From positions 18,389-82,388 of the forward strand of contig JAFQEM010000018.1 in NCBI GenBank assembly GCA_017399035.1: a DNA stretch of 64,000 nucleotides, in the 5' to 3' direction. Shown here one piece after another: positions 1 to 32,349 of the stretch (positions are counted from its first letter, which is position 1; each line of letters opens with the position of its first letter). Below the pieces are notes generated by a model. The model searched no databases. It saw only the letters and a list, made by a program, of their open reading frames with translations, and was not told the origin of the DNA. The position numbers and the translations under genes are program-made. The DNA is from Clostridia bacterium (GTDB lineage Bacteria > Bacillota > Clostridia > Christensenellales > Borkfalkiaceae).

Positions 1-189
1 TTGACCTAACAAAACCACCTTAACGTTTTCAAACGACGTATATTTCATACTGTTGAATATATCGTACATTGAGGGATAAACGGTATATTGAGAATATTCT
101 TTTTTCAAAAATTCCCTTAGTGCAAGATATTCTGCGCTAGAAAATTCTTCTTCTAAAATTGCATCCCACTCGCTTGAAATTTTTATCAT
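1..189 (-). CDS. ung: Uracil-DNA glycosylase, N-terminal 63 codons (gene runs off the window start)
   Basis: Minus-strand translation from ATG at 189: MIKISSEWDAILEEEFSSAEYLALREFLKKEYSQYTVYPSMYDIFNSMKYTSFENVKVVLLGQ. This matches the Ung N-terminus up to the VilGQDPY motif. Confidence 0.8.
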   Translation of the reverse strand, partial: MIKISSEWDAILEEEFSSAEYLALREFLKKEYSQYTVYPSMYDIFNSMKYTSFENVKVVLLGQ

Positions 190-13900: not shown

Positions 13901-15492
13901 ATATCTAATCTATCGCCAAACCCAAGTTCGCTATAATAAACCTTGTTATCCGCCACAAGTTGCTCTAAAGTTTCGCCAACGAACGTGAGTTCAGTGCCGT
14001 CGTAAACCTTTTCGTCATCAAAAACGGTAATTGTGAGTGGTTTAGGCGTTATTTTTAAGTTGCCAAAATTTTCAGTTATAAGGTAGTTTGATATAACGCT
14101 ATTTCCGTATGCATTTGTAATATAGTAAATAGGCGTGTTTTGAATTTCGTCAACGTCTATTATTGACTCGTCAAACACAATTTCTATATTATCGTCGTCG
14201 GCAAGTTGCCCAAGTTCAATTTTTCCTTGCGATATAAGTTCTTCTTTCGATAAACCAACAAACGTGAGTTCAGTGCCGTCATAAACTTTTTCTTGGTCTT
14301 TGACGGTAATTGCGAACGGTTTAGGCGTTATTTTCAAGTTGCCAAAATCTTCGGTTAAAACGTAATTTGATATAACACTTTCGCCTTGAGAATTTAAAAT
14401 ATCGTAGTCAGGCGTGTTTTGCTCGGTAACCGCATTTATTATAGATTTTGTAAACTCAACGTCTATCCTGTCGCCCTCTGCAACGTTGCCAAGCATAAGT
14501 TTTCCGCTTTCAATTAGCGTGTCAATATTTTCGCCTACAAAAGTGAGCGGTGTTCCATCATACTCTTTACTTACTTCGTTTACCTTTATTATAAACGGGC
14601 GTGGCAATATTTCTAACGTACCAAACTGTTTGTTTATATTATAGTTCGCAGAAACGTCTTGTCCGTCTGCATTTTTAATAGCGAAAACAGGGGTATTTTC
14701 CACAAAACCAACGTTTGTTATTGACTTATTAAACTCAATTTCTATTTTATCGTCAAAAGCAAGTTCACCAAGCGCAATCTTGCCCTGTTCGATAAGTTGT
14801 TCTTTTGAAAGATTTGTAAAAGTTAATTCTTTTCCGTCGTAAGTTTTATTTTCGTCAGCGACCTTAAAAGTAAATCTTTTTTGCGCAACGTATACGTTTT
14901 TTTCTGACGCGTTAATATTATAACAATGCGTTACGTCGTTACCTAATTTGTCTTGTATAACAATGCTATCTTTTAGCGCAGATATTTTTTGAGTTCCAAC
15001 CGTCTTTTGTAAATTATAATCTATTTGACTAATTTTGTCGCCGTTTTTAAGGTCAGCAACGTAAGTGGGCATATCGCCGTAAGTAAGGTTATTTTCTTTA
15101 ATTTGAACGTCAAGACTTGCAGGTTCTATCACAAGCGGAACGGCACGACTATAATTTTTTATACCGAACGTACGCTTTGAATATGCGCGCACACTATAGT
15201 CCCCCGTCTGCGTAGGCAGACCGTCAATCCACTCGTTACCGTCTGCTAACTTATGTTCATAACCCACTTTGCTAAACAACGCCCCTGCGCTACACTCAAC
15301 GCGTTGACCATAAACTATTTGCGGTGTAGAAAGGTTTATATCGTCAGTAAAAATTCCACGCACGGATAAAAATGCAACGTACAACGCCAAAATAGCCCCG
15401 ACAACTGAAAGTATCAGAACTTTATGCTTTTTTATCTTATCGACTATTTTAGCGATTTTTTCAATTTTTGTTTGATAATTTTTGTATAACAT
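10951..15492 (-). CDS. Giant signal-anchored surface protein made of ~13 YDG/MBG-like beta repeats
   Basis: 1513 aa. One N-terminal TM (VLILSVVGAILALYVAFLSV). Repeated units have the form K-x-YDG-x-x-L-T ... G-D/H ... NY-x-I ... G-x-L-x-I-x-P-R/K-P. No LPXTG motif, no catalytic motif. Confidence 0.75.
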   Translation of the reverse strand: MLYKNYQTKIEKIAKIVDKIKKHKVLILSVVGAILALYVAFLSVRGIFTDDINLSTPQIVYGQRVECSAGALFSKVGYEHKLADGNEWIDGLPTQTGDYSVRAYSKRTFGIKNYSRAVPLVIEPASLDVQIKENNLTYGDMPTYVADLKNGDKISQIDYNLQKTVGTQKISALKDSIVIQDKLGNDVTHCYNINASEKNVYVAQKRFTFKVADENKTYDGKELTFTNLSKEQLIEQGKIALGELAFDDKIEIEFNKSITNVGFVENTPVFAIKNADGQDVSANYNINKQFGTLEILPRPFIIKVNEVSKEYDGTPLTFVGENIDTLIESGKLMLGNVAEGDRIDVEFTKSIINAVTEQNTPDYDILNSQGESVISNYVLTEDFGNLKITPKPFAITVKDQEKVYDGTELTFVGLSKEELISQGKIELGQLADDDNIEIVFDESIIDVDEIQNTPIYYITNAYGNSVISNYLITENFGNLKITPKPLTITVFDDEKVYDGTELTFVGETLEQLVADNKVYYSELGFGDRLDIQFSSSITDVNSVDNVPSYSIKSSSRGDLVVTNNYKITDNFEDCKLTVTPRPIRLKFNNEKNYDGYALLMEDNFEFISGELVDSHYMTVCSNDVKAKTYGKESVDLHIFEPTKEVTTNYQVIIEEDSALIINKRDITIESYDGSAIYNAEPFTLNEYVYYNMPSDHTLDVSVTGSITDVGSAENTIIINDIKNQNNESALENFNYTVTAGTLTVTPRQVFVFANAVKTYDDSAEIHAKDVSVSVLKEEDEGVLTENLYGNQKIRVAKCELPTGCINAGTYLESVKILEWDIESGNKDNYNITINAGDLTIEKRPLTIKTPKASIIYDGQVHTFKFKDGVIDQEGLVDGHKIELNDDWTELLQGSGPNEVTVKDVLNSVNQTVKDNYKIIYEYGEITVGLREISLVIDENKQYNGQEFYATSIDYAESSLEVVDNHTIKVWTDGVNVGEYKGEKIKYYIFDEDGNDCSSNYIVLTDNVQLEITKRELTVTISDFTKVYDGGQYSAYSVEYENNYSQPFALNQTQTITVENLLDEHVFYADLFSSAINVDDTNTAITIRNGEYRWRVANLSADGKDQTQNYVIKTLNNGTLTITPCEMSLKVDIEKDYDDTTSLENAVLSYYTADGEFFELMPLYNMKVDCTLKEQCIDAGTYLGVVECSGVQITDGQNENVSRNFLINTTALGDLTINQLSIYLYSDNMNKEYDGTPLTNDKILVNEDYGNALVDGHKIVPQDPSNLPFALTREDGRVDNKISYKIIDAFGNDKTGNYYEIAYDYGTLSIDLTKISIVIFGYEAYYNGQSHAFTGRKFVVEKIREGYGQLAEGDEILGFDTYTAYDKNSMQYVDQIVNAGEYEVGVDLSSMRMRYNGQEVGYEEAGNYVFEVTSAQYVIRKQEVYLTANSITSDEPIDSEQLQDAYTITYGKFMAGDEVKVYVSGSCLEKGTSTSNIWYVEVDGERVYTQNEDVLYEDLLNYNIKVFNGTLTYN
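13755..14880 (-). repeat. Four highly similar ~279-nt (93-aa) tandem coding repeats inside the 1513-aa gene
   Basis: For example, 13977-14100 and 14257-14380 are near-identical (caacRaacgtgagttcagtgccgtcRtaaac...ggtttaggcgttatttt). The protein units begin FTFKV / FIIKV / FAITV / LTITV. Confidence 0.8.
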
Positions 15493-15514: not shown

Positions 15515-18500
15515 TTACACATCAACCGTGATTGTGCCAAATGCAATTTCTATGTGGTAGTTTTTAGTAACGTCTTTACCACTTGCGTCAAGTATCTTTA
15601 ACGTATTGCGCTCAAAACTATTTGGGCATTCACCGTAATAAGATATTTTACCAGTAAATACAAGTTCGTTTGATATTTTATGCCCAGCAACAAGCCCGCT
15701 AACGACTAAATCTTCCATTTCACCATTAAACGTTGTTATTCCATCGTAGGAATACTTTACGTCTTTAGTTTTAACAGTTATTTCCTTTTGAGTAATTTTC
15801 AAATTTCCTACAACGGTAACTTTATAATAATCTTTAGTAACGTCGTTACCACTTGTATCTACAACTTTTACGCTTACGCTCTTCTTTGTGCCTACGTCGG
15901 TTATACTATTGAATTGAACGTCAATGGTATGTCCGTAAAGCGTTGTTCCCACCGGTGTATATCCCTTATCATAAACTAACGGTGTTCCGTCGTAAACTTT
16001 AGACATATTTTCAGCCGTTACCTTTATAGATTTATAAAGGAACAATTCTCCATTATAACCTTTTTTCGTTTCGTACTTTATTTTATAATTTTGAGTTACC
16101 GTATCGCCGTTGCTATCTACAATGCCAAACTCGCACTCGTTTTTATGTCTTCCGCACGTTGAAACACTAAATGATTTTGCTAATTCTACCTTGTGTCCAT
16201 CTAACAAGTCGTTTTCATCTTGTAATTCAAAATCATAACTATATAATTTTGCAGATGCAACAAATTCCTTCTCTGCGTCTTTGCGATATATAACGATATC
16301 TCTAGGTTCTACTTTGACGGTACCATATTCGTATTTAATTTCGTAATACTTGTCAGTTACGTCTATTCCGTTTTCAAAAATTATAATCTTAAATTCATTT
16401 TCAGTAGTTTCACCAACGTTAGTAGGATTGAATTCGCCTTCAAATTCACCTTTTTGCACCTTATGTCCGTCAAGAACTTTTCCATAAGGCATATCGTCTT
16501 GGTCTAAACCGGTGTCAAACCAGTACACTTGCCAAGATTCTTTATTGTCTTGGCGGATTGCATAATTAGCGTCGTATTGATGATTATAGTTATCAGTATT
16601 AACGCATAACTTTATTCTAACTATTTCAAACGCGCCTTCTTTTGCGTCAATCTCATAGTTGTTAGTTACGTCTTCTCTATAATTAGTACAGTCAACTATT
16701 CTATACGTTTGAATATTTTTGTGTACACCGATATCTTTTGCCTCAGTCGTGGTCAACAACTCAACGCTGTGGTCGTTAAGTAAACCACGCGATTCTTCAT
16801 AATTTATACCTTCAAAGTCGTAATTTTCACTCTTTTGCAATTCACCAGTATAAGGCAACTTTATTTCTTTTTTGTAATACGGGCTGTCAACATTTCCGCT
16901 TGCCCAAATGGTTATGGGGCGCTTGCTTATTTGCAGAGTGCCATATTCAACTCGCTTTATTTCATATTCTTCTGTAATATCGTTTCCAAACTCGTCGCGT
17001 ATAACGTATTCAAATCCGTTATTTTGATAGGGCGCGCAAGCGTTGACGGGCATTTGAATATCTTGCCCACCAACTACTTCAATATAATGACCACTCTTAA
17101 GATAGCCGTCGTATTCCCATTTAATAGCCTCTGAATAATCAATAGGTATTCCGTCATAAACCTTAGACACGCTAGGCGTTTTAAGAACAAGTTCGTTCTT
17201 TCTAACTTCGTCAAACGCACCACCAGTAACTTCAACTTCTACCCAGCCCATACCGTCAACGTAAATTTCCACCCACGCGTGAGCGTATTTACCCGTAACA
17301 ACGGTAACGTTATAAGGTTCTGCCGTAACTTTATATCCACAAGTATATCTTGCAGGTATTCCGTAAGCGCGGAATATCATTGTTGCGGCGGCTGCAAAGT
17401 GTTGGCATATACCCTCTTTACCCTCTTTCAAGAAGTATAAAACCATATCTTCGCCCGCAGGGAACGTATCAAACTCAAGGTTATAACCTGCGCAATTTTG
17501 AACGTAATCACGAATTTGTCTAGCAATAGACAGTTTATCCCCCCAAAAATATCCAGTCAAATCTAACAACTCGTTTTTCAACCACTCGTCAATATTTAAA
17601 TAGTTATTATAAACGAAATTGCGGTATCTGCCCTCTTGCGAAGTTAAATCAGATGGCACTAAATAAGTTTGCCCTTCTGCCAAATAGTCGTAATTACTAG
17701 CCTTTGTCATATATATAGGCAAAGATTGAGAAAAACGAATGTCCCCCGTTTCTTTTATTCCGCCAGTTATTGAATAATAAGGCAAATAATATGCGTTTGA
17801 ACCGTCAAGATTTTCTATAACTATTTGGTCCATAACCCTGCCCGCGTTATTCAATGCCGTTCCAGTAAAATACAACGGACTAACTACCGACTGGTCATAC
17901 TCTTGAGCATAATCAAAACCACTGCCGTTATAATCACCAAAATTTTCGTAACGAAGATAATATTCGCTAGCAACGTTTGAATAAGAAATTAAACTTAAAA
18001 CTTCAACGTCTGCATTGTCGCCAAAACCGTTGCCCTGCTGTTGAAGATTATTATCAAACCGTTGATTACCTGCGCCACCTAAACCGCCTTGCCCAACACC
18101 TACGCTTGCGCCGTTGGGGTCGTCGTCGTTTTCATTGAGAATACCGTCGCCGTCTATATCGTTATCTATATCGTTAGGCATACCATCGCCGTCTACGTCG
18201 TCGTCTTGACCGTTGGGCAAACCGTCGCCGTCTACGTCTGCGTCTTGACCGTTAGGTGTGCCGTTTCCGTTTACGTCGTTATCTTGATAATTAGGTATGC
18301 CGTCGCCGTCGGTGTCTAAATTTTGATTTGCCATCATTGACGCCATAACTTTTGCGGCTATCGCTTGCATCAACTGCTCTCTTTGTTCCTCTGTCAGGTT
18401 TGAATTTTCTAACTGTTTGAGCAAATCTTCTATATTCATATTTTCAAGGTCGAGTGAAGAAAAATCGTAATTGCCAAATCTATCAATTAAATCTTCAATT

Positions 18501-18898
18501 TTTTCTTTGTCAAGTTTATCCCAGTCAATCCAACCCTCTTCGTGCACAATCAATAGCCCTGGCGTTTCAATTATTCTGTATTCGTTAGTAACCGAATTAC
18601 CTGCTTGGTCTACGATAGTGTAGTGGAAATAGTTAAAAGACGCGCCTTTTTCCGTCTGTGAACCATAAGTTTCAACTATAAGCGAATGTCCGTCTTTGAG
18701 TTTGCCGTGTCTAATACCAAAACTCTCGCTAGTTAGCGGTGTTCCATCGTAAGCCTTTTCAGCAATACCCGAATAAATTACTAGTCTTCTAGTGTCAACG
18801 TAACCGGTAGAAATAACGGCAAAACACGCGCAAATCGAAACGAAAAGCGCGACTAATACACCTATTAAAAAATAATATAAACGTATTTTATTTTTCAT
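15515..18898 (-). CDS. Signal-anchored transglutaminase-like protein with thrombospondin type-3 Ca-binding repeats and YDG/MBG-like repeats
   Basis: 1127 aa. N-terminal TM, then one MBG-like unit. D-x-D-x-DG repeats at aa ~195-262 (DTDGDGIPNYQDNDVNGNG...DIDGDGILNENDDD). TGase core: GICQHF (Cys498), YAHAWVE (His540), GWVEVEVTG. Then ~6 further MBG-like units. Confidence 0.8.
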   Translation of the reverse strand: MKNKIRLYYFLIGVLVALFVSICACFAVISTGYVDTRRLVIYSGIAEKAYDGTPLTSESFGIRHGKLKDGHSLIVETYGSQTEKGASFNYFHYTIVDQAGNSVTNEYRIIETPGLLIVHEEGWIDWDKLDKEKIEDLIDRFGNYDFSSLDLENMNIEDLLKQLENSNLTEEQREQLMQAIAAKVMASMMANQNLDTDGDGIPNYQDNDVNGNGTPNGQDADVDGDGLPNGQDDDVDGDGMPNDIDNDIDGDGILNENDDDPNGASVGVGQGGLGGAGNQRFDNNLQQQGNGFGDNADVEVLSLISYSNVASEYYLRYENFGDYNGSGFDYAQEYDQSVVSPLYFTGTALNNAGRVMDQIVIENLDGSNAYYLPYYSITGGIKETGDIRFSQSLPIYMTKASNYDYLAEGQTYLVPSDLTSQEGRYRNFVYNNYLNIDEWLKNELLDLTGYFWGDKLSIARQIRDYVQNCAGYNLEFDTFPAGEDMVLYFLKEGKEGICQHFAAAATMIFRAYGIPARYTCGYKVTAEPYNVTVVTGKYAHAWVEIYVDGMGWVEVEVTGGAFDEVRKNELVLKTPSVSKVYDGIPIDYSEAIKWEYDGYLKSGHYIEVVGGQDIQMPVNACAPYQNNGFEYVIRDEFGNDITEEYEIKRVEYGTLQISKRPITIWASGNVDSPYYKKEIKLPYTGELQKSENYDFEGINYEESRGLLNDHSVELLTTTEAKDIGVHKNIQTYRIVDCTNYREDVTNNYEIDAKEGAFEIVRIKLCVNTDNYNHQYDANYAIRQDNKESWQVYWFDTGLDQDDMPYGKVLDGHKVQKGEFEGEFNPTNVGETTENEFKIIIFENGIDVTDKYYEIKYEYGTVKVEPRDIVIYRKDAEKEFVASAKLYSYDFELQDENDLLDGHKVELAKSFSVSTCGRHKNECEFGIVDSNGDTVTQNYKIKYETKKGYNGELFLYKSIKVTAENMSKVYDGTPLVYDKGYTPVGTTLYGHTIDVQFNSITDVGTKKSVSVKVVDTSGNDVTKDYYKVTVVGNLKITQKEITVKTKDVKYSYDGITTFNGEMEDLVVSGLVAGHKISNELVFTGKISYYGECPNSFERNTLKILDASGKDVTKNYHIEIAFGTITVDV

Positions 18899-18917: not shown

Positions 18918-19286
18918 TTAATCGTAAACGACCAACTGCCCGTAAGTTTTGATAATTTGATAACTTGAAGTTACGTTTTTGCCTTCTGCATCAGTTATAA
19001 CTACTCTAAAAACGTTATCGGATGTTCCCTCTTGAGTTCTAGTGCCAACAAACATAACCTTTATGGTATGACCTTCTTTTAAGTTACCCTTGGTTACTTC
19101 ATAACTTTCACAAGTGAGAGGCGTTCCGTCGTAAAGTTTGCTTGCGCTTGCTGACTTTATTTCAATAATTTCTCTAGGCATAGATACAACGCCCGTCAAA
19201 ACAAGCGTAAAACAAATGATTATTGCTAGGACCATAGTGATTACGAATCCTGACATAACATAAAACCATTTTTCTTTTTTCTTCAT
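18918..19286 (-). CDS. Small signal-anchored protein with a single YDG/MBG-like domain
   Basis: 122 aa. TM (FVITMVLAIIICFTLVLTGVV) followed by ASKLYDGTPLTCESYEVTKGNLKEGHTIKV...SSYQIIKTYGQLVVYD. It is paralogous to aa 1-120 of the 1127-aa protein. Confidence 0.75.
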   Translation of the reverse strand: MKKKEKWFYVMSGFVITMVLAIIICFTLVLTGVVSMPREIIEIKSASASKLYDGTPLTCESYEVTKGNLKEGHTIKVMFVGTRTQEGTSDNVFRVVITDAEGKNVTSSYQIIKTYGQLVVYD

Positions 19287-19305: not shown

Positions 19306-20703
19306 TTAAATAGTTCTTTCTAAATGTCTTAAATAATCTTTGGTTAACGTCATCTTTTCTTGTCCGAAAGTCTCTTCTATGTGCGCACATAATCCGTCTA
19401 TCGCATTTCTTACGTATACGGGGTTTTGCATCTCTAACTTTCTCATTATCTTCTTTGCTATGATGTCGTCTACCGCCTCTTCTTCCGTTCCACCGCACGC
19501 TATGTACGCTGATACGTATTCTTTTAACTGTTTCATTATACGGTTACCAAACGTTATATGAAAGTTCTCTATCATATATCTGTCTAACTCTTTTATCTGC
19601 CTTAACTTCCTGCCCGTTATTCCGTATTCTCTCTTCGCTTTTGCTATTAGTTTCTTAAACCTATCGTACGTTATTCTTACGCCTTCCGTATCTTCTGCGT
19701 AAAATACGTGCGTCTTTTTATCTAGATTCATTATCATTGCTCTATCGTATACCTTATCCGATATCGCAAACGTTGAGTCGTCGTTATTTGCAGTCCCTAT
19801 AAACCACATATTTTCGGGTAGTTTTAGTTGTCCTTTCTTTAATAACTTCGGGTCGTTATCCCACTTGTCCGTTACTACGTCTATATATCTTCCCTCTGGG
19901 TTTGGTAACTCTAATAACGACAAGAATTCTGCAAAGTAATATTCTACCCTTGCTATATTCATTTCGTCTAGTACCGTTATGTATATCTCTTTACTATAGT
20001 TTGCCTCGTACATCTTTTGCAACAAGGTTGTTTCGTTAAACTTTTTTGTAAATTCGTTATAATACCCCACTAGGTCGGTTCTCTCTTTCCACATAGGTTG
20101 TATAGGTACTATTACTGAATGATTACTTAAAAATTCACCAAACGCATACGCTAACGAAGTTTTACCCGTACCACTCATACCTTGCATTATGATTATATGT
20201 GATACTGCTAAACTTGCTACGAATCTTCTTATCTCTCTTATATCGTAATATAACTTCAATCTGCTTGCGGCAAAGTTTCTAAACCTTTCGCAAAACTCTT
20301 TCATTGTTATTTCTTCATCAAATCCGCCCTGCGGTTTATTGCGCATTACTCTATCCGTTTCGGTTAACATATAGAAACGTGAGGGGTGCTCTTCACTATC
20401 TTTTTCTTTTTCCTCTGCGCTAGCACCCACCGCCGTCGTGCTTGCGATTGAAGAAGTGGCGGTTACAGGTTTACCGTTGTTTACCTTTTCAACGTAATCA
20501 CGAAGTTTATCTAACTCTTCGGTTTCTTCCGCACGCCTACCGTGGTCAAAAACCACCGCAACCACTAGGATAACTACGGCAAGAAGAAGAACTACAACGT
20601 AAATTAAAATTGCTATTTGGCTAGAGAGCGCAGTCCAAATTGTATCCGCAACGGGATTGTCGCTTACAGCCATTAAATTATTTAACGCATCAAACTTATA
20701 CAT
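19306..20703 (-). CDS. Membrane-anchored McrB-like (AAA_5 type) AAA+ NTPase
   Basis: 465 aa. TM at aa ~29-52. Walker A QGMSGTGKTS, Walker B ITVLDEMNIARVEYYFAEFLSLLE, then WFIGTANNDDSTFAISDKVYDRAMI. This is the McrB/dynein-related AAA pattern (DEINRAN...FGEL..LLE; IGTMNtaD...RRF). Confidence 0.75.
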   Translation of the reverse strand: MYKFDALNNLMAVSDNPVADTIWTALSSQIAILIYVVVLLLAVVILVVAVVFDHGRRAEETEELDKLRDYVEKVNNGKPVTATSSIASTTAVGASAEEKEKDSEEHPSRFYMLTETDRVMRNKPQGGFDEEITMKEFCERFRNFAASRLKLYYDIREIRRFVASLAVSHIIIMQGMSGTGKTSLAYAFGEFLSNHSVIVPIQPMWKERTDLVGYYNEFTKKFNETTLLQKMYEANYSKEIYITVLDEMNIARVEYYFAEFLSLLELPNPEGRYIDVVTDKWDNDPKLLKKGQLKLPENMWFIGTANNDDSTFAISDKVYDRAMIMNLDKKTHVFYAEDTEGVRITYDRFKKLIAKAKREYGITGRKLRQIKELDRYMIENFHITFGNRIMKQLKEYVSAYIACGGTEEEAVDDIIAKKIMRKLEMQNPVYVRNAIDGLCAHIEETFGQEKMTLTKDYLRHLERTI

Positions 20704-20722
20704 TTAATCTCTCCACCCGTAA

Positions 20723-23110
20723 TTATTTTTTCAATCCGTAAACGGAGATTGCTTGTTTTGTTAAAGGAATATTTTCAAACCCGAAAAGTTCGTCTAGTTT
20801 GAAAGAAAAATCTTGCTCGGGAACTGCCAAAATTTTATCTTTTTCGGTAGCAACAAGCGGAATTATTTTTTCACAAAGTATAGCGTCTAGAGCCTCTGCC
20901 TTGTTCATACCGCACGCGATAAACGCCGCAATATTTTCTTCCATTTGTCTTATAAATCTGTTGTCAAAACGGATATCGGTGTTCTCTTCAAGATATTCTT
21001 CTAAACGGTCTATCTTTCTCCAGTAATCTTCAGTTAGATAACAGGTTTCTTGAGCCTCTTCAAGCGATTCTTTAATCATACCGAAAGAAGTTCCGCTCTT
21101 TATAAACAACTGACTATCTGCGTCGTTTCTCATTGTGAGTGGCAAGTCTACGATAGAAGAATATTTAATCCACTCGGGTTCTAGCGCCGTAGCCTTATCT
21201 TCCCCTATAAATACTACCATTCTTAAGTTGTCTGAAATTTTAACGCTACCACGTCCGTAATATTCAGTTTCTGGTAAACCTTTTATCTTGCCTACGAACA
21301 CTTTTTCTTCGTTACCAGCGATTGCGGTAATTACGTCTGCATCAAAGTCGCCTATTGCATCAACGGCGGTGTTATCAACGAACACCAAACCGAAAGTGTT
21401 GTAAAGATAGTTTGCAACGAATAACCCACCCGCAACACCGTATTTAAGTTCTCTCTTCTTCTCTTCGTCCGTTTTGGGTTTATAAACGTAAACGGGTTTT
21501 TCAACGGGCTTAACCACAGGTTTAACTTCGGCAGGCGTTAATTCGTCTTGCGTAGACGCAACCTCTTCCGCATTTTCTTGTTCAGAACTGCTTTGCGAAT
21601 TTATACCTGCAAGAAGGTCTGCAATAGACGTTCCACCCGAACTTTGCTCTTCGGGTTTTTCTTCGGTTGAAAGGTCGCCAACAAGAGCGGATAGAGAATT
21701 GCTTTCGGGTTTTTGTTCTTGCGCGCTCTCAATAGACGCAGCAAGGTTAGTTACAACCGATTTATATTCTTCTTCAGGATTTTCTCTTCTCTCATAGAAC
21801 AAGTCTTCACCAAAGAAGGTAGATATGGTGTCTGCAAATTCCCTTAAAACGTCAGAATTTGCGCCACTTTTTATAAACGTAACTTTTGACGAAAGTATTG
21901 CCGCAAGAACTTTTTGCATTTCGCCTTCGTCAGTTATAATGCCACGGTCGTTAACTGCAATACACAAGTTTTTGCACATCTTGTCAATAGAAGTTTTATC
22001 TTTAAAGTCAAGATTTTCGTTACGAATTTCAAGTTCGGTTTCACTCCAAGCCCTAGGCTCTTCTTTAGCCGTTTCGGTCAACGGTTTTGAAACGTCATTA
22101 GTTGCAGGTTGTTCGTCTTTCTTGAAGAAACCCTTAAATTTAGGAACTTCTTCAACGTACATTTTACTGCTTACTAATTTGTTGTAAACTTTTGCGCCAA
22201 CTATATCTAAAACGCCTATCAAAACTAGCAAAATAATTGACCAAACTTCTTCATAACCGTTTGCGATAATCATATTGATTATGAGTGAAGAGCAAGCGAT
22301 TAAATATATAACGTGTTGCCAAATAGGTAAGGGACTATATTTTGAATGTTTGCGACCTCTTGTGGTCATATAAGAAAAAGCGTTGTTCAAGGGCATACAA
22401 ATTTTAACGGTTGATAGCACCAAAATGAACAAGTAAATTACGCTTGCTGTGTTATAAACACCCGCAACCCAGTCTTGCCTAGCAGTGTCGAAAATAATAT
22501 GATGTTGAGAACCATCAAACCAACTTTCCATCATATAACGAGTGCCAACGGTATCTCTTCTATGCAAAACGAAAAAGAGCATAAATATTTTTGAACCCCA
22601 AGACAAAAGGTAATATAAAACTTTACCTTTACTTGGGCGCAAGTCGTAATTACATAGTTGAGCGATAAGCGCAAATATAAGACCTATCGCATAAAGAATA
22701 AGCACTATAAACCAGTATTCAATGCCGTAACTGGTGCTGAGCGCTTCCATATTGTTGGTAAGGAAAAACCCTACAAATACGCCAAGCGTCAAATTTATAG
22801 TGTTTGCAAACAATTTATAAAAACTATATCCCACACCAGCGCGGTATTTTTTTAGGTTATTAACCATAACCACAGCGACTACCAACAAAATAATTGAGTG
22901 GCATAGCATAGATATAGTTGCAATTAGGTTACCATATTCGCCCCTACCAAACCTTTTTAAGCCCGATTCAAAAAGCGAACCGTCTTTACCAGTCGGTAAA
23001 AACGGAATAACCATAATTATGAATAATGCGATAAACCCGTAAATGGCGGTAGCGTATAAACTTCTAGATTTTTTGATTGAACTTACGCCACCTTTTGTAG
23101 TCGTTGACAT
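20723..23110 (-). CDS. Polytopic membrane protein (~8 TM) fused to a degenerate McrB-like AAA+ domain
   Basis: 795 aa. aa 1-320 are hydrophobic helices, followed by an acidic S/E/P-rich linker. The C-terminal ~330 aa are collinear with the 465-aa ATPase but have lost the P-loop (IKSGANSDV vs QGMSGTGKTS) and Walker B (VFVDN vs VLDEMN). The shared tail is FxNRxxxQxxExxxAxIACG. RBS aaaaggag. Confidence 0.75.
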   Translation of the reverse strand: MSTTTKGGVSSIKKSRSLYATAIYGFIALFIIMVIPFLPTGKDGSLFESGLKRFGRGEYGNLIATISMLCHSIILLVVAVVMVNNLKKYRAGVGYSFYKLFANTINLTLGVFVGFFLTNNMEALSTSYGIEYWFIVLILYAIGLIFALIAQLCNYDLRPSKGKVLYYLLSWGSKIFMLFFVLHRRDTVGTRYMMESWFDGSQHHIIFDTARQDWVAGVYNTASVIYLFILVLSTVKICMPLNNAFSYMTTRGRKHSKYSPLPIWQHVIYLIACSSLIINMIIANGYEEVWSIILLVLIGVLDIVGAKVYNKLVSSKMYVEEVPKFKGFFKKDEQPATNDVSKPLTETAKEEPRAWSETELEIRNENLDFKDKTSIDKMCKNLCIAVNDRGIITDEGEMQKVLAAILSSKVTFIKSGANSDVLREFADTISTFFGEDLFYERRENPEEEYKSVVTNLAASIESAQEQKPESNSLSALVGDLSTEEKPEEQSSGGTSIADLLAGINSQSSSEQENAEEVASTQDELTPAEVKPVVKPVEKPVYVYKPKTDEEKKRELKYGVAGGLFVANYLYNTFGLVFVDNTAVDAIGDFDADVITAIAGNEEKVFVGKIKGLPETEYYGRGSVKISDNLRMVVFIGEDKATALEPEWIKYSSIVDLPLTMRNDADSQLFIKSGTSFGMIKESLEEAQETCYLTEDYWRKIDRLEEYLEENTDIRFDNRFIRQMEENIAAFIACGMNKAEALDAILCEKIIPLVATEKDKILAVPEQDFSFKLDELFGFENIPLTKQAISVYGLKK

Positions 23111-23323: not shown

Positions 23324-23352
23324 ATTATATATCTGTAAAGTAAAAATGTCAA
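23324..23352 (-). promoter_or_regulatory. Consensus sigma-A promoter of the AAA+/TGase/MBG operon
   Basis: Minus strand: TTGACA (23352-23347), exactly 17 nt, TATAAT (23329-23324). Predicted TSS near 23317, giving a leader of about 205 nt. Confidence 0.7.
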
Positions 23353-23453: not shown

Positions 23454-24161
23454 TTAAATCATTTTTGCAAACTCTTTTTTCAATCTTACTATAATTTTCT
23501 TTTCCAAACGAGATATGTAACTTTGTGAAATTCCTAGCATATCGGCAACTTCTCTTTGCGTTTTTTCTTCTGAACCTTTAAGCCCGTATCTCAATTCCAT
23601 AATCTCACGCTCTCTATCGTTAAGTTTAGTGAGCGCAACCCCCAAAAGTTCACTCTCTACGCCGTTTTCTATTTTTTTATAAACCACGTCGCCGTCAGTA
23701 CCCATAACGTCTGAAAGCATAAGTTCGTTGCCTTCCCAATCGGTGTTGAGCGGTTCGTCAAAAGACACTTCACTTTTAATTTTAACCGTGCGCCGTAAAT
23801 GCATCAAAATTTCGTTCTCTATACAGCGCGACGCATAGGTTGCAAGTTTTATATTTTTATCTGCATTGAAAGAATTTACCGCCTTAATTAGCCCTATAGT
23901 ACCCACCGAAACCAAGTCGTCTAAGTCTACGCCAGTGTTTTCAAAACGCCTTGCGATATAAACTACCAAACGCAAATTATGTTCTATAAGTTGGTCGCGT
24001 ATTTGCTTTTCGCCCTCACCCAACTTTTTTAGCATATCCGCCTCTTCTTCCCCACTATAAGGCAAGGGCAAAATTTCACCGCCACCTATAAATCTTAAAA
24101 GATTTTGACTTAAAGAAAATTTTTCAAGAAACTTTTTCAACTTGCTTAATACGTTCATCAC
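23454..24161 (-). CDS. sigE: Mother-cell RNA polymerase sigma factor SigE (pro-sigma-E)
   Basis: 235 aa. Pro-sequence, then [16 protein letters not shown]...[64 protein letters not shown], near-collinear with B. subtilis SigE. It sits immediately downstream of spoIIGA. Confidence 0.92.
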
Positions 24162-24948
24162 TGTTCTCCTTATAAAACGCTGGGTGTAAAATTAAATCGT
24201 AGCCGTCGCCTACGGTATCGGCAACGCACAGCGTTACTTTATTAAATATATTCGCTTGTTCTTCAATATATATCTTTATTTGGTCAAGTTCTACTGCTAT
24301 ATTTTCAACACTTCCCGACACGGTTTTTACCATAATTTTTTTAAGTTTTATTTTATGCAAGTTTTCACCCACAAAATCAACAAAAAACTTTTTTTCGCAC
24401 AAAACCACAGGGTTTTCGCCGTCGTAAAGCCCGTTTCCCGTATCCAAAAAACCGCGAACGGTTGCAGTTTTTTTGCGCAAGGTTATATCCACCTTAAAAA
24501 TAAACGCCTCTATATCTTTACGCCTATAGATATACTTAATTGTAGAATTTACACACGCTATTAAAACCCAAACAGGCAACACCATAATTGCAACTGAAAA
24601 TTGCGCCGAATAATCAAGACCAAATATATTATAAATGCCAACTATTGCTCCACCCACGGCAAAGGTTAAAAGGAAAAATATTAAGGTGTTTAGTAGGTAC
24701 GCGCGTTTTGACGGATAAACGTTAGCAACAAGCGTCAACAAAAAGCCCGACAATATTCTAACCATAAGCGAAATAAACTTAACGTGAGCAATAAGCGGAT
24801 AAACAAGCGCAATGACCGCACCTAAAAAAGAGCAAAATAAAAGCCTACCCTTACTATATCCGTTTCCGGTAAGCGCAAAGGTGGCTTTAAGTAATAAATA
24901 ATCGATTATAACGTTGTCAATTAAAACGTATTCAATATAAACGGTCAT
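24124..24948 (-). CDS. spoIIGA: Sigma-E processing peptidase SpoIIGA
   Basis: From M11 of the track ORF: [21 protein letters not shown], five TM helices, then [11 protein letters not shown] (aspartic protease DTGN motif). Adjacent to sigE. Confidence 0.88.
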
Positions 24949-25089
24949 CTTTGCCCCCGCGCCTTTAGATTGTAGCATAAGGGTAAAAGCCGTTTAAGTA
25001 AGTTTTTTATGTATTTTAATTTATTTTGTAGAAAAGATAAACCGCCCGAAAAATTTCAAGCGGTTTGTTCTTAAATTTGTATTTTTAAT

Positions 25090-27012
25090 TTATTTAATGT
25101 TTTTTAACAGTTTATAATACTCTTCAAAATTACCCCTTGTATCTATAGGTTCTGTAGAAAAACTTTCTGGTCCAAAAGTATCTAAATCAAGTTGTTCTTC
25201 TACGTTCAAATACCCTACCCCGTCAATATATAAAGTTCCGCCTCTGTGTGGAATAACGTGTTCGGTATGACCATTAAACGACGTTTCTTGCCCCGTTCTA
25301 ACGTCTCTTAAAATAATGCGACTACTTCCTTCAAAATACAGCATTTGGGTCTTACCCACCAAAATAACGCCGTAATCGCGGTCTTGGGGAAGACCTTTAT
25401 ATGCAAATTCTTCAATAAAATCTCTTATAGTGGTATCGCCTTCACTAAATCCGTCAACAGGCATTTTTACAACGCCTATATAATTATCCGTAACATTGTT
25501 AAAAAATGCTTGTTGCCAAATGATTCCGCCGTCAGACTGCGCTGCGGTTGAAAAAAATGCGTTGCCGTCAATTATGCAAGTTAATCTTAAACAGTCAAAT
25601 CGGGTTGCAACTGCGCCAACCTGCCAAACTACGTATGCGTAAGAAAAATCTACGCTTATATTCTTTTCTACGGCTTGCCACTCACAGTTTTCGTTAAGAA
25701 CGGACATAGAAATGTTATTTAAATCGCCAGAGAAATTTACACGATAAAGTCTTCCGTCGCTACCGTTGTGATAAAGGTTTGCTTTTCTATAATTATTTGC
25801 GCCAAACCTATCGTTGGTATTGTTAAGTTTATCGAATACTGCTTGATTCTTTTGCGCAAGTATAATTTTTTGACTTACTTTTCTTTCTGCATTACTATCC
25901 AGATTATCAGAATTCTTTAAATTGTTGTTCGCAAACAACATATTGCCATAAATATCGGTATACGCCCTACAAGAACCCACCGCCAAAAGAAATTCGCTAT
26001 CGTTAGGAAATTCCACCTTGTTAAAAGTTATTCCGTTTTCAGTCGCTAAAGGTCTATAATAAATAAACCCACCGGGCGCAGTTTTATCGTAAAGTTTGAT
26101 AATTCCACCACTTACCGAATAAATATATCCGAATTGACTTAAAGAACAAGTAAGCCCAGTTGAATTGTCTATGATGTAACTTTGATTAAAGTCGTCTGAC
26201 CAGTAGTTTATTTTGTGATAGTTTTCTTCGTCTTGATAAACTTTTATAGGTATCATACCCTTTTTACCATTTGAAGACTGAACGGTTATCCAGTTAAAAC
26301 CATATCCCCTTTCGCCATTGTTATCAATAATGTTTACGTAAGTGGGAAAACCACGTTCAGGGCCACAGTCGTCAGGAATCCTTGAATAATGTTGTATAAT
26401 CTTAATTTTACCTTCAACTGCGCTACTAATTGAAACGAAGGTAAAATTACCAACGGTATAAAGTTTATTTACCCTTGCGCCAAGAGATAAAACCGTGCCT
26501 ACAGCACCGCTCTCTTCTTCTTGAGTTATTTCATCTGAAATTTTGTCACAATCAACTTCTGCACACTCAACGCTTTTATGGTGATGTTTTTGATATTTTT
26601 TATTCAAATGTTTATAACTCTTCTTTACGCCACCGCCAAGATTATGAAAGTGTATATCCGAAACACCTTCTTCTGTCTTTTTTGCAAATTCGTTTTTTTT
26701 CTGTTTAGTATTATCACTATCATAAGTTTGTGCAGAAAAAGAACTTGTGTCTGCAGAAAAAGTACCTGCACTTGCAGACATAGGGTTTGCACTTGCAGTC
26801 GCTGGTGTTGTTTCTTTTTCTAAAATACCAAAACCTTCTGCTTCCATAAAATTTGCTACTTTGCCGTCAAGCATACTCGCTGAAATTTTGTTAACGGTTG
26901 ATGATTGCGGAGTAATATCGTTATTATTATTGTTGTTGGTTATACACCCTGCACTAGTAACCATTAAACACGTTGCCATTGCTAAAGAACAAAACTTTTT
27001 AACTATTTTCAT
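25090..27012 (-). CDS. Lipoprotein of unknown function
   Basis: 640 aa. Lipobox LMVTSAGC followed by a poly-Asn linker (ITNNNNNND) and an S/A/T-rich low-complexity segment. I recognise no catalytic motif. Confidence 0.6.
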   Translation of the reverse strand: MKIVKKFCSLAMATCLMVTSAGCITNNNNNNDITPQSSTVNKISASMLDGKVANFMEAEGFGILEKETTPATASANPMSASAGTFSADTSSFSAQTYDSDNTKQKKNEFAKKTEEGVSDIHFHNLGGGVKKSYKHLNKKYQKHHHKSVECAEVDCDKISDEITQEEESGAVGTVLSLGARVNKLYTVGNFTFVSISSAVEGKIKIIQHYSRIPDDCGPERGFPTYVNIIDNNGERGYGFNWITVQSSNGKKGMIPIKVYQDEENYHKINYWSDDFNQSYIIDNSTGLTCSLSQFGYIYSVSGGIIKLYDKTAPGGFIYYRPLATENGITFNKVEFPNDSEFLLAVGSCRAYTDIYGNMLFANNNLKNSDNLDSNAERKVSQKIILAQKNQAVFDKLNNTNDRFGANNYRKANLYHNGSDGRLYRVNFSGDLNNISMSVLNENCEWQAVEKNISVDFSYAYVVWQVGAVATRFDCLRLTCIIDGNAFFSTAAQSDGGIIWQQAFFNNVTDNYIGVVKMPVDGFSEGDTTIRDFIEEFAYKGLPQDRDYGVILVGKTQMLYFEGSSRIILRDVRTGQETSFNGHTEHVIPHRGGTLYIDGVGYLNVEEQLDLDTFGPESFSTEPIDTRGNFEEYYKLLKNIK

Positions 27013-27066
27013 TTTTATCCTTCCTAACTTTTATTTTATATATAAAATTTTTTTTAATATTAAAAT

Positions 27067-28176
27067 TTACTTCATAAATTCTAAAATTATATCGTTCTGC
27101 ACGTATAAATATTCGTCTTTTATAGTTAGAATATCGCCCTTTCTTTCCATAAAGCGCATTTTCTTTGCCAAAACTTCTTTATATTCATTATCAAAATCAA
27201 CCGAAAAATTTTGGTTAAACTCTTTTATATTAAGCCCGTCTGAAGTGCGAAGCGCAAGCATAATTTGTTCAAACTGCGCGTCTGAACCCTCTATAACGTC
27301 GCTAGAAATTTCGGGTGATTTATTATAAATTACCGCATTTATATATTCGTCAATCTTGAAAGTGTTTGTAAATCTTCTGCCGTCTACGAAAGAACTTGCA
27401 GAAACGCCCACCCCGATATATTCGCCACGTTTCCAGTAATTCATATTATGGCGCGACCTAAAGCCTGCCTTTGCAAAATTAGAAACTTCGTATCTCTCAA
27501 ACCCTTTTTCTTTTAAATAAGCGCGAACACCGTCGTAAACGTCGGCAGTTTCGTCATCAGATAGAAGTTCACCGTTAAGATAGTCAGTGTAAATAGGCGT
27601 CCCCACTTCGGGGGTAAGCGCATAAACGGAAATATGGCTTACGCCACCTGCCAACGCTAAATCAACCGTCTTTTTAACCTGCTCTAAAGTTTGGTCGTGC
27701 AAACCTATTAGCACGTCTGCGCTAATATTTTCACCTTTTAAAAGATTGCAACACTGCAAAAAATCTTTTGCAGTATGTATTCTGTTCAACTTTTTTAACT
27801 GCTCGTCAAAACCAGTTTGCAAACCTATTGAAAAACGATTTATGCCAACCTGTTTATAAAGTTTAATCTTTTGTTCGTCAACCGTGCCTGGATTAAGTTC
27901 AATGGTGATTTCCGCATCTTTTTTGACGGTAAAACACTTTTTAACCTGCCTTATTGCGCCCGCAATTAAATTAGCGTCAACAACCGACGGCGTGCCACCG
28001 CCGATATAAACCGTGTCAATAATTTTATTAGGATATTGTTTTGCCCTGCCCTGAATTTCACGATATAAACAAGCAAAATAACTTTCAGCCTTTGAGAGTT
28101 CACGAGGATAAGATGCAAAGTCGCAATAAGTGCATTTTTGTTTACAAAAGGGAACGTGAATATAAATTCCTGCCAT
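27067..28176 (-). CDS. hemW: Radical SAM family heme chaperone HemW (oxygen-independent coproporphyrinogen III oxidase-like)
   Basis: 369 aa. MAGIYIHVPFCKQKCTYCDF (CxxxCxxC). The position immediately downstream of lepA is conserved in Firmicutes. Confidence 0.88.
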   Translation of the reverse strand: MAGIYIHVPFCKQKCTYCDFASYPRELSKAESYFACLYREIQGRAKQYPNKIIDTVYIGGGTPSVVDANLIAGAIRQVKKCFTVKKDAEITIELNPGTVDEQKIKLYKQVGINRFSIGLQTGFDEQLKKLNRIHTAKDFLQCCNLLKGENISADVLIGLHDQTLEQVKKTVDLALAGGVSHISVYALTPEVGTPIYTDYLNGELLSDDETADVYDGVRAYLKEKGFERYEVSNFAKAGFRSRHNMNYWKRGEYIGVGVSASSFVDGRRFTNTFKIDEYINAVIYNKSPEISSDVIEGSDAQFEQIMLALRTSDGLNIKEFNQNFSVDFDNEYKEVLAKKMRFMERKGDILTIKDEYLYVQNDIILEFMK

Positions 28177-28179
28177 AAT

Positions 28180-29991
28180 TTACCTGTCGTTATCTGTTTT
28201 AAGTATAGATATAAACGCCTCGGACGGAATTTCAACCGTACCGATAGAACGCATTTTCTTTTTACCTTCTTTTTGCTTTTCAAGAAGTTTTTTCTTTCTG
28301 GTAACGTCGCCACCGTAACATTTAGCAAGAACGTCTTTTCTAAACGCCTTAACCGTTTCACGCGCAATAATCTTTCCGCCTATTGCCGCTTGAATAGGGA
28401 TTTCAAACATTTGACGTGGGATAACGTCTTTAAGTTTTTCGGCTATCTGTCTACCACGCTCATACGCTTTGTCTTTATGAACGATAATTGAAAGCGCGTC
28501 GCAAATATCGCCGTTTAAGAGCATATCCATCTTTACTAAATCACTTCTTTGATAGCCCGCAATTTCATAATCGAAAGATGCGTAGCCTTTGGTGCGCGAT
28601 TTTAAACTGTCGAAAAAGTCGTAAATAATTTCGTTAAGCGGTAAAGTATATTTAAGTTCAACCCTAGTTTTATCTAAATACACCATATCCTTATAAACGC
28701 CACGCTTAAATTGACAAAGTTCCATAATAGGTCCAACGTAATCAGGTGGGGTAAATATGCTTGCGTTTATAACTGGTTCTTCCATATAGTCAATTTCGGT
28801 TACGGGTGGTAAGTGCGTGGGATTTTCTATAACCAACTGCGTGCCGTCGGTTTTATAAACCTTATACGAAACGGACGGAGCGGTGGTTATTATATCAAGG
28901 TCGAACTCTCGCTCTATTCTCTCTTGAATAACGTCCATATGCAGTAACCCCAAAAATCCGCAACGGAAACCAAAACCAAGAGCGGCAGAGTTATCTGGTT
29001 CAATAGACAACGCAGCGTCGTTTAGTTTTAATTTCAAAAGCGCGTCTTTAAGGTCGTTAAATTTGCTACCATCTAACGGAAACACGCCCGAGAAAACCAT
29101 AGGCAAAGCCTTTTTGTAACCTGCAAGCGGTTCTAACGCAGGGTTTTCCACTTGAGTTATAGTGTCGCCAACCGCAGTATCTTCAATACTTTTAATACTT
29201 GCGGCAATATAACCAACTTCGCCTGCGCAAAGTTCGTCTTTGGGTTGCATTTTTGGCGAAAATACGCCAACTTCAGTAACGTCGAACTGCTTATCCGACA
29301 TAAAGGTTTTAATCTTCGTGCCTATTTTAACCTTTCCGTCCATAATGCGCACGAAACAAATAACGCCCTTAAAATTATCGTAATAACTATCGAAAATAAG
29401 CGCTTTAAGAGGTGCGTTTTCATCACCCTTTGGGGCAGGTACTTTTTCTATAATCTGCTCTAAAACTTCTTCAATATTATAACCGGTTTTTGCAGATATA
29501 CGAGGCGCGTCAGTAGCCTCTATCCCTAAAATTTCTTCCACTTCCATAGCCACGTCGTCAGGGCGCGCGCTTGCAAGGTCTACCTTATTTATAACCGGCA
29601 TAATCTCTAAATCGTTATCAATGGCAAGGTATGCGTTAGCAAGCGTTTGAGCCTGAACACCTTGAGTTGCGTCTACAATTAAAATTGCCCCCTCGCACGC
29701 TTTAAGCGAACGTGAAACTTCATACGTAAAGTCCACGTGCCCAGGGGTATCTATAAGGTTAAAAACATACTCTTTGCCGTTCTTTGCCTTGTAAAACATT
29801 CTAACGGGCGTAAGTTTTATGGTTATTCCGCGTTCTCTCTCTAAATCCATTGAGTCAAGAAGTTGTTCTTCCATATCACGCTCGCTAACCTGCCCAGTCT
29901 TTTCCATAAGACGGTCTGCAAGCGTACTTTTACCGTGGTCGATATGCGCCACTATACAGAAATTTCTAACGTTTTCTTTGTTGATTGACAT
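28180..29991 (-). CDS. lepA: Translation elongation factor 4 (LepA)
   Basis: 603 aa. [31 protein letters not shown] and the LepA-specific C-terminal domain (IPQEAF-like IPSEAF). Confidence 0.95.
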
Positions 29992-30075
29992 ATATTACCT
30001 TTTAATGTATAATAATCTCATATAGTATATATCATTGACAAAAATTTTGCAAGTAAATTAAAAACGGTGTTAAAA

Positions 30076-30798: not shown

Positions 30799-30924
30799 AA
30801 CTTAATATTTTTATAAAAATCAACAAAATACTTACAAAAACAACGCTTGCGACTTTATAAAGGCGTATTTTTGACGGCGCAAGTTGATAAACTTAATACG
30901 ATAACTTTTGGGGGTGATTGTATT

Positions 30925-31167
30925 ATGACTATTAACGACGCCGTTGCAAAGAGAATAAAAAAACTTTTAAAACAACAAAATAAAACTCAATATCGGCTTG
31001 AAAAGAGTTCTTTTATTGCACACGGTGCAATGAACAATATTTTAGCAGGCAAAAACAAAACGGTAACTCTTACCACCGTTTATAGACTTGCGCAAGGTTT
31101 TAATATGAGCATAAACGAATTTTTAGACGATAAAGTTTTTCGTTCTGAAGAACTTGAACTAGAATAG
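30925..31167 (+). CDS. XRE-family helix-turn-helix transcriptional regulator
   Basis: From M27 of the track ORF (RBS ggggtga): MTINDAVAKRIKKLLKQQNKTQYRLEKSS...LTTVYRLAQGFNMSINEFL, a Cro/C1-type HTH. Confidence 0.75.
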   Translation: MTINDAVAKRIKKLLKQQNKTQYRLEKSSFIAHGAMNNILAGKNKTVTLTTVYRLAQGFNMSINEFLDDKVFRSEELELE

Positions 31168-31249
31168 TTTAAAAAATTAAAAGGACTAAACCAAAATTTA
31201 GCGTTTTTTGTAGTTCCTATAAGGGAATTAAATTTAATACAAAAGTAAA

Positions 31250-31287
31250 GCCCACTATACTTCGCAAAAAAGCGAAATATGGTGGGC
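31250..31287. terminator. Bidirectional terminator between the XRE gene (+) and spoIIID (-)
   Basis: 16-bp stem (one mismatch): gcccactatacttcgc / gcgaaatatggtgggc around an a6 loop. T-rich on both flanks. Confidence 0.75.
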
Positions 31288-32337: not shown

Positions 32338-32349
32338 AATTTGCCCCTT

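Follow-up and report, generated by a model that had tools for sequence, protein, structure and literature searches.

Motors of the McrBC type are known as soluble, nuclease-linked machines of restriction and defence. Their structural architecture, which is the basis of the analogies drawn below, is described by Bell et al. (2024; PMC11090510). These authors define a major branch of McrB proteins by the signature NxD, usually followed by E or by a second D, and interpret the branch as defence systems. One paragraph of their paper is devoted to CoCoPALM, in which an NxD GTPase is fused to an FtsB-like transmembrane (TM) and coiled-coil domain, the McrC homologue carries coiled coils, and genes of the signal-peptidase family (pilus assembly) are found as neighbours. 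No fuller description of CoCoPALM, as promised there, was found, and the text supplements of the CoCoNuT paper carry nothing on it. PDC-M26 is a two-gene phage-defence candidate obtained from 'guilt by embedding' (bioRxiv 10.1101/2024.01.29.577857), for which the supplement of the PADLOC paper gives family numbers only. Here we analyse a stretch of 64,000 nucleotides from a Clostridia bacterium of the Borkfalkiaceae (GenBank assembly GCA_017399035.1, contig JAFQEM010000018.1, positions 18,389 to 82,388), called the window throughout, in which a gene for a 795-amino acid (aa) membrane protein is followed by one for a 465-aa AAA+ protein. The proteins are named by their length in aa (p465, p795, p122, p1127, p1513) and coordinates are those of the window (Table 1). 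p465 has the features of a working McrB-like motor and p795 those of its dead paralog, and in relatives both belong to a longer operon with a second active motor, a McrC-like partner and giant putative surface proteins.

We assign p465 as an intact McrB-like AAA+ protein, predicted to be a nucleoside triphosphatase (NTPase) held at the cytoplasmic face of the membrane by an N-terminal TM helix. A preliminary description of the locus had attributed to it an intact Walker A motif, an intact Walker B motif and a McrB-like motif, and re-translation found all of them in place. GMSGTGKT, VLDEMN and N306-N307-D308-D309 are invariant across 65 homologues, and Asp320-Arg321 is also invariant. The PDB sequence matches are to McrB only (E = 5e-4 with the single protein, E = 6e-3 with a 65-sequence profile), while NCBIfam returned a weak McrB match and Pfam a match to AAA_5 (E = 8.7e-7). 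NNDD aligns with NTAD of Escherichia coli McrB and with NHDE of the nearest DUF2357-linked relative and fits the signature of the NxD branch; the motif alone does not separate NxD+D from NxxD. The single TM helix is followed by basic residues and, in the AlphaFold model (pLDDT 81.6, pTM 0.73), runs on as one long helix to residue 75. This helix and a linker make up the N-terminus, where neither hydropathy nor the model revealed a DNA-binding specificity domain. In comparison to E. coli McrBC (PDB 6hz4, 6ut6, 7vsr), Walker A and B, the sensor-1 Asn in Nx(x)D, the trans Arg and, in the full operon of relatives, a DUF2357-family activator are common features. The differences are the membrane anchor of p465, its lack of the DNA-binding N-terminal domain, the partner in which no nuclease domain was detected, and the dead paralog and second motor copy, which have no counterpart in E. 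coli; the overall similarity is weak (~20 bits).

Closer relatives were found on plasmids, where a tblastn search retrieved AAA ATPases of ~800 aa that are 33-38% identical over p465 residues 130-465. The one on plasmid p96k of Deinococcus sp. AJ005 is 39% identical to residues 148-448 (E = 7e-67), including the FGNR...ACGG tail, and has NHDE at the position of NNDD. There and on a plasmid of Rhodoferax antarcticus the next gene after the AAA gene is one that RefSeq annotates as 'DUF2357 domain-containing protein'. Both plasmids carry a conserved four-gene cassette (p96k 25751-38689, locus L076; R. antarcticus plasmid 42648-55484, locus L077) which codes for a >1000-aa AAA-domain protein, a hypothetical protein of 487-489 aa, the ~800-aa AAA ATPase and the DUF2357 protein, and which is probably a CoCoNuT-type system. 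p465 also matches the PADLOC model PDC-M26A (E = 3.6e-48). The likeness to CoCoNuT (CnuB/CnuC), PDC-M26 and the plasmid examples comprises the 39% identity over motor and lid, NxD followed by an acidic residue, and a DUF2357 partner in the full operon. In contrast to the ~800-aa plasmid proteins, of which p465 matches only the C-terminal residues 469-773 and which belong to mobile four-gene cassettes, the motor described here consists of a TM anchor and an AAA module, is duplicated, is accompanied by a dead paralog and is encoded on the chromosome beside surface-protein genes. The McrB-only PDB matches and the DUF2357-linked plasmid relative bear out the McrB-like nature proposed in the preliminary description, with no indication of another P-loop clade. 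The comparative evidence is decisive here, and p465 fits a McrB-like AAA+ protein of the NxD ('CoCoNuT-like') branch.

p795, judged from its sequence, is an ancient, catalytically dead McrB-like paralog in which the AAA+ fold and a C-terminal lid specific to the family are retained. Its C-terminal third had been described as collinear with p465, including a shared tail (FGNRIMKQLKEYVSAYIACGG in p465, FDNRFIRQMEENIAAFIACGM in p795). BLASTP and a single-family hidden Markov model (HMM) reach only the lid: the BLASTP alignment is confined to p465 290-455 and p795 620-785, the C-terminal ~170 aa, at 25% identity (E = 1e-14), and hmmsearch with a profile of the active AAA family covers only the last 115 residues (E = 1e-18). 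Alignment of the Walker region needed a profile of p795 orthologues. With p795 residues 330-795 and 54 orthologues, hhalign in local mode aligned 343 columns to the AAA-family profile (probability 99.9, E = 1.7e-33), spanning p795 356-792 against p465 115-462. This profile-profile similarity is far above chance. The HMM of the active family aligns orthologues of p795 over the whole module (L030, E = 3.6e-33, profile 89-482; L003, E = 1.8e-23), and the succession of strands and helices is identical in the AlphaFold models of p465 and p795, so that the proposed collinearity holds. The p795 model of residues 330-795, built from 10 sequences, has a pTM of 0.70 and pLDDT above 85 in residues 352-444 and 556-795; the insertion between these segments, residues 445-555, is a gap opposite p465 in the hhalign alignment. 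In that alignment the P-loop is occupied by KSGANSDV and Walker B by VFVDN, as in the preliminary description, with the Asp of Walker B kept and the catalytic Glu changed to Asn; NNDD becomes GEDK and Arg321 becomes Tyr. p795 thereby has neither the Lys of the P-loop nor the Glu of Walker B, and its sensor-1 Asn and Arg finger are gone as well. A GxxxxGK[ST] P-loop is absent from all ~50 orthologues, which argues that the loss is old and conserved and not a recent decay.

The N-terminal part of p795 is a different matter. A Kyte-Doolittle scan found eight hydrophobic segments after a basic N-terminus, and the membrane domain that they form has no family match in Pfam or NCBIfam. Their even number would place the C-terminal module in the cytoplasm. 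One such segment in p465 and eight in p795 agree with the earlier proposal that both proteins are membrane-tethered, by one TM helix and by about eight, respectively. This part of p795-type proteins varies among loci: it can be the 8-TM domain, a short anchor only, or a GH3_C plus Fn3-like domain. The 8-TM form is specific to the lineage of the window (an exhaustive search gave 17 representatives at E<=1e-30), and the commonest form is GH3_C plus Fn3-like without signal peptide, followed by a TM hairpin. Examples of the latter (L013:6599-9940, L045:2600-6601, L026:2663-5809) presumably have a cytoplasmic glycosidase-like domain fused to the pseudo-ATPase. AAA+ assemblies with non-catalytic modules are known, such as AAA5 and AAA6 of dynein or the delta and delta' subunits of the clamp loader. 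As in these, p795 has kept the fold and lost the residues of the nucleotide site, and it is encoded beside an active paralog. It differs from them in having no Arg finger and a 110-residue disordered insertion, and it may or may not enter a ring.

Fold comparison is less specific for both proteins. Foldseek with the full p465 model ranked dynein, MCM, NorQ, BrxL and Lon on top and McrB outside the top 50. McrB, dynein, MCM, NorQ, BrxL and Lon are commonly grouped in the helix-2-insert AAA+ proteins, and NorQ is a MoxR-family ATPase. For the model of p465, this search confirms an AAA+ fold and does not single out McrB. The best PDB matches of the p795 model were RavA (E = 1.5e-3), a MoxR-like ATPase, MCM (MCM5), dynein and ChlI, all of them AAA+ proteins. 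Operons of MoxR, VWA and transglutaminase genes exist in other bacteria, and the operon studied here includes a Transglut_core protein. That protein, RavA and the MoxR-like ATPase as best fold matches of the dead paralog and NorQ among the top matches of p465 speak for a module comparable to those operons, in which a chaperone of the MoxR type would mature or activate the transglutaminase surface protein. We consider it very unlikely, as sequence searches match McrB and not MoxR, the NxD(D/E) signature is present, the partner is a DUF2357 protein, and in many relatives the downstream YDG or MBG proteins have no recorded transglutaminase match. Pfam detected no VWA or DUF58 domain in the operon proteins, and the lack of a VWA partner led us to set the MoxR-type role aside.

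A scan of species-representative genomes gave 67 loci with relatives of these genes, all of them in uncultured metagenome-assembled genomes (MAGs). Most of the labels fall into two sets, Christensenellaceae, Borkfalkiaceae or unclassified Clostridia on the one hand and Anaeroplasmataceae, Acholeplasmatales or Bacilli on the other. The same gene order is found in ~45 of the 67: a membrane protein whose last part is the dead AAA module, a first active AAA copy (one TM helix), a protein of 500-615 aa, a second active AAA copy (two TM helices), and one or more giant proteins. The giant proteins open with a p122-like module formed by a basic tail, a TM helix and a YDG-like domain. This module comes next after the last AAA gene in 40 of the 53 loci with room for it, the exceptions being mostly truncated contigs, and the link to downstream repeat proteins drawn in the preliminary description is thus a conserved one. 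The flanks of the operon differ from locus to locus and consist of ordinary housekeeping genes.

The two active copies are kept nearly identical within each genome. In the 40 loci that have both, their last 1080 nucleotides (nt) are 93.5-100% identical (median 99.85%) and their last 360 residues 97-100% identical (40/40 in each case), while orthologues from different genomes share only 52-62% identity. In several loci (L034, L050, L029) the copies differ by 4-6% in DNA and by no or almost no amino acids. These values point to gene conversion combined with selection that keeps the motors identical while their membrane anchors differ.

The window itself holds a shortened form of this operon. A 474-aa protein, P0003, which aligns with p465 at 99% identity along 82% of its length, led to conspecific contigs. 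One of them, the 42.9-kb scaffold L071, encodes a 795-aa protein (P0121) that is 99% identical to p795 by BLASTP, and its gene order is 795, 465, 554-aa DUF2357-coiled-coil protein, 474-aa AAA protein (2 TM), 122, 1127 and 1515. BLASTN of window positions 24200-10001 against L071 gave 98.7-98.9% identity in two blocks that share 1155 bp of window sequence. Apart from 3110 bp that lie between two copies of a 1152-bp repeat, the window corresponds to L071, where the two copies have 99.0% identity and an identical core of 906 bp. The missing stretch carries the gene for the DUF2357-coiled-coil protein together with the 5′ end of the second AAA gene; both are absent throughout the 64-kb window and stand between the 465-aa and 122-aa genes in L071 and ~40 other loci. 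The 465-aa gene of the window is a hybrid, with the 5′ end of copy 1 and the 3′ flank of copy 2 of L071. Two short contigs from other samples (L073, L074) have the same short form, in which p795 and p465 are the only AAA genes, and three further conspecific contigs (L068-L070) begin inside the repeat, no more than ~200 nt from the end of the first AAA copy. Loops of this A-R-B-R-C form are well known to collapse when assembled from short reads, and homologous recombination would yield the same product. Eleven sites differ between the repeat copies of L071, and because these sites are unstable between strains (in L068-L070, copy 2 has the bases of 'copy 1') they do not decide between collapse and real deletion. 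The missing stretch is probably an assembly collapse rather than a recombinational deletion. Two near-identical motor repeats of 1.15 kb break or collapse short-read assemblies, so many MAGs will show a truncated operon and be misread.

These data bear on the model put forward in the preliminary description, in which p795 and p465 alone form an asymmetric hetero-hexamer on an 8-TM platform that energises or gates the export of repeat proteins. Several points speak for this model: the genes lie 20 bp apart, their pairing as paralogs holds in all loci, both proteins are predicted to be membrane-anchored with their AAA modules on the same side, and no other AAA gene occurs in the assembled window or in the two short contigs. 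The two proteins nevertheless make up only part of the module, as the natural operon includes another active AAA copy as well as an activator of the McrC-like kind. Moreover, the lineage-specific occurrence of the 8-TM domain makes a conserved channel unlikely, the dead copy has no Arg finger, and the repeat proteins have what hydropathy indicates to be ordinary N-terminal signal-anchor helices, normally inserted via Sec/YidC. On balance, export driven by these two proteins is unlikely. The accompanying remark on the lack of a nuclease holds for the window, but the window is without two genes of the natural operon.

The identity of the third protein of the full operon is settled by Pfam, in which DUF2357, the N-terminal domain of McrC, matches eight of nine orthologues of the 500-615-aa protein (best E = 1.8e-9) and the conspecific 554-aa protein with 25-27 bits (cut-off 23.3). 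A profile of this McrC-like N-domain also recognises the RefSeq DUF2357 proteins beside the plasmid AAA homologues (E = 5e-13). Against the PDB, the full-length McrC-like profile gave only coiled-coil noise and the N-domain alone no match. The C-terminal half of the protein, 200-300 residues, has coiled-coil matches only, and a Pfam search found no match to nuclease families. The better argument for a partner that would be nuclease-free is its length: only ~50 conserved residues lie past the coiled coil, leaving no room for a PD-(D/E)xK domain.

With these components, CoCoPALM is the nearest named class. The likeness extends to the NxD-branch McrB-like GTPase with an N-terminal TM helix continuing as a long helix, to the coiled coil on the McrC homologue (here in the conspecific locus, not in the window), and to the linkage with surface-structure genes rather than methyltransferases. 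Ten N-terminal anchors gave no FtsB or DivIC match in Pfam, only TM noise; Bell et al. mention HHpred and HHalign elsewhere in their methods (PMC11090510), and their FtsB assignment probably came from more sensitive profile-profile searches. No signal-peptidase-family gene was present in the window operon, in L071 and L075, or in the flanks of L007, L022, L040 and L063. The published CoCoPALM text, for its part, is without a dead AAA paralog, duplicated identical motors, YDG/transglutaminase giants or a sigE-adjacent position. The system is an apparent variant of the McrBC-derived NTPase module, which may or may not belong to CoCoPALM.

We favour, with moderate confidence, the view that the operon encodes a membrane-anchored derivative of the McrBC-type NTPase machine (NxD branch), without detectable nuclease, that acts on the cell envelope. 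By analogy with McrBC, the two active copies would build McrB-type hexameric rings beneath the membrane, and the stalk of the DUF2357 protein would enter a ring and stimulate hydrolysis of nucleoside triphosphates as McrC does. The coiled coil of the DUF2357 protein may dimerise or bridge rings. The dead paralog may be a non-catalytic adaptor or a subunit that interrupts the ring, in either case coupling the motor to a membrane platform or to a cytoplasmic sensor domain; without a site and an Arg finger of its own, p795 placed in a ring would silence two sites, not one. The work would be done on the envelope, most likely in the placement, assembly or turnover of the giant YDG/transglutaminase surface proteins. 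A more specific version, which we put forward tentatively as a possible but less probable one, is a restriction-type NTPase that was stripped of its DNA-binding and nuclease parts, was fixed to the membrane, acquired a dead paralog and a second motor gene held identical by gene conversion, and has become a constitutive chromosomal housekeeping device, assembling, positioning or tensioning giant transglutaminase or YDG surface fibres.

Several points weigh against an envelope machine of this kind. All relatives come from MAGs, and the rings, the inclusion of the dead subunit, the nucleotide specificity and the target are drawn by analogy; the link to the surface proteins is one of gene order alone. 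The fold search ranks McrB no higher than dynein, MCM or NorQ. Another part of the genome could encode a nuclease, and Pfam likewise detects no nuclease domain in the plasmid DUF2357 relatives, so that the absent Pfam nuclease match is by itself weak evidence. Were the window's deletion real, this strain would operate the system with no McrC-like activator, which would weaken a McrBC-type mechanism for its genome. Should the envelope role be true, the operon, in which motor and activator domain appear membrane-anchored and without nuclease, would clearly exemplify the exaptation of a defence motor for cell-surface biology. It would also offer a natural setting in which to study the role of a dead AAA+ subunit beside active ones and the need for identical motor genes. 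The fibre-tensioning or assembling device, if it exists, would be a new kind of envelope motor in uncultured gut lineages.

The transcriptional organization bears on two further explanations. The five genes of the window are spaced by 19-22 bp, lie between a promoter and a terminator and are one transcription unit, inserted between sigE and sigG. The promoter sits inside the 343-bp gap that separates the sigE-like gene from the 795-aa gene. A perfect sigma-70 consensus (12/12, TTGACA-16..18-TATAAT) is found 50-250 nt 5′ of the orthologous first gene in ~20 divergent loci (listed in Table 1). The genes spoIIGA-sigE and sigG are adjacent in Bacillus and Clostridium. The operon also lies directly 3′ of spoIIGA-sigE in L001, L045, L049 and L051, labelled Christensenellaceae or Christensenella. 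Such a position suits a sporulation-specific module that builds or cross-links a spore surface layer with the transglutaminase protein. Nevertheless, this role is extremely improbable: the operon has its own terminator and its own sigma-70-type promoter, and the Anaeroplasmataceae, Acholeplasmatales and Bacilli MAGs as well as most other loci have unrelated genes instead of a sigE neighbour. The conservation of the promoter and the existence of loci without sigE are the reasons for which the sporulation-specific role was set aside.

Anti-phage defence is the most serious rival of the envelope role. The operon would then be a membrane relative of CoCoNuT/CoCoPALM, with an NTPase that senses or blocks infection at the envelope and giant proteins that serve as shield, decoy or effector. 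The strong match of the motor domain to the PADLOC candidate, the plasmid-borne AAA-DUF2357 pairs in four-gene cassettes as nearest annotated relatives, and the interpretation of the NxD branch by Bell et al. (PMC11090510) as defence systems all argue in this direction. Against it stand the absence of a nuclease or other recognisable effector among the proteins found, the conserved promoter of housekeeping-type consensus, and a gene order that is strict across two bacterial classes. The chromosomal place is a fixed one, between sigE and sigG in the window and right after spoIIGA-sigE in four relatives, and the flanks are housekeeping genes and not defence islands. A PADLOC scan of the other operon proteins, p1127 and p1513 not among them, gave no match beyond coiled-coil noise. 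In our judgement a defence function is doubtful, and an envelope machine of McrBC descent remains the preferred explanation.

Table 1. Coordinates of the operon, its features and its neighbours (window positions unless a locus is named)
Feature	Position	Strand	Remarks
640-aa open reading frame	25090-27012	-	
spoIIGA	24124-24978	-	
sigE-like gene	23454-24161	-	
Promoter TTGACA-17-TATAAT, perfect sigma-70-type consensus	23324-23352	-	12/12 match; ~210 nt 5′ of the 795-aa gene
Loci with a promoter of this type			L006, L010, L013, L022, L029, L034, L036, L038, L040, L045, L049-L051, L059, L065, L071, others
795-aa gene: polytopic membrane domain and predicted catalytically dead McrB-like AAA+ module	20723-23110	-	
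Eight-segment membrane domain of p795	22193-23053	-	residues 20-306; Kyte-Doolittle scan and loop charges
N-terminal half of pseudo-AAA fold of p795	21779-22057	-	residues 352-444; hhalign; pLDDT 87-94
KSGANSDV at P-loop position of p795	21848-21871	-	
Acidic low-complexity insertion of p795 between beta2 and the Walker B strand, predicted disordered	21446-21778	-	residues 445-555; pLDDT 27-44
C-terminal half of pseudo-AAA fold and lid of p795	20726-21445	-	residues 556-795; FDNRFIRQMEENIAAFIACG tail conserved
VFVDN in place of Walker B hhhhDE, p795	21371-21385	-	
465-aa gene: predicted single-TM McrB-like (NxD-branch) AAA+ NTPase, catalytic motifs intact	19306-20703	-	
TM helix of p465	20560-20616	-	residues 30-48; hydropathy; only hydrophobic segment
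GMSGTGKT (Walker A)	20158-20181	-	p465 residues 175-182
VLDEMN (Walker B)	19957-19974	-	p465 residues 244-249
NNDD (sensor-1 signature)	19777-19788	-	p465 residues 306-309
1152-bp repeat unit common to both active AAA genes, site of collapse or deletion	19306-20457	-	L071:3254-4405 and L071:6364-7515
Example pair of active AAA genes	L013:9953-11416 and L013:13322-14818		
122-aa gene: basic tail, one TM helix, one YDG-like domain	18918-19286	-	
1127-aa gene: N-terminal anchor, YDG-like repeats, DxDxDG calcium-type repeats, transglutaminase core	15515-18898	-	
1513-aa gene: N-terminal anchor, YDG-domain repeats	10951-15492	-	
Intrinsic-terminator-like hairpin	10898-10921	-	10 pairs, 6 GC; closes the operon ahead of the sigG-like gene
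sigG-like gene	10026-10799	-	
211-aa open reading frame	9126-9761	-	
824-aa open reading frame	6581-9055	-	
328-aa open reading frame	5563-6549	-	

The three proteins encoded downstream of the AAA genes in the window are related to each other. p122 is a free-standing duplicate of the N-terminal anchor module of p1127 (window 18539-18898), with 40% identity, and the internal repeats of p1513 are common to p1127 and p122. p1513 matches the Pfam family YDG (PF18657, E = 2.4e-10) and has its TM segment at residues 25-43. p1127, with the TM segment at residues 11-29, matches Transglut_core (E = 2.5e-21). Upstream of this core, residues ~188-263 hold DxDxDG-type repeats (DTDGDGIPNYQDNDVNGNG...) that resemble the calcium-binding thrombospondin type-3 ones, and the protein has a weak NCBIfam match to MtsC. 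The sigma-factor genes on both sides of the operon are flanked by open reading frames of 640, 824, 328 and 211 aa, none of which has a Pfam match; the 640-aa product has a lipoprotein-like start.

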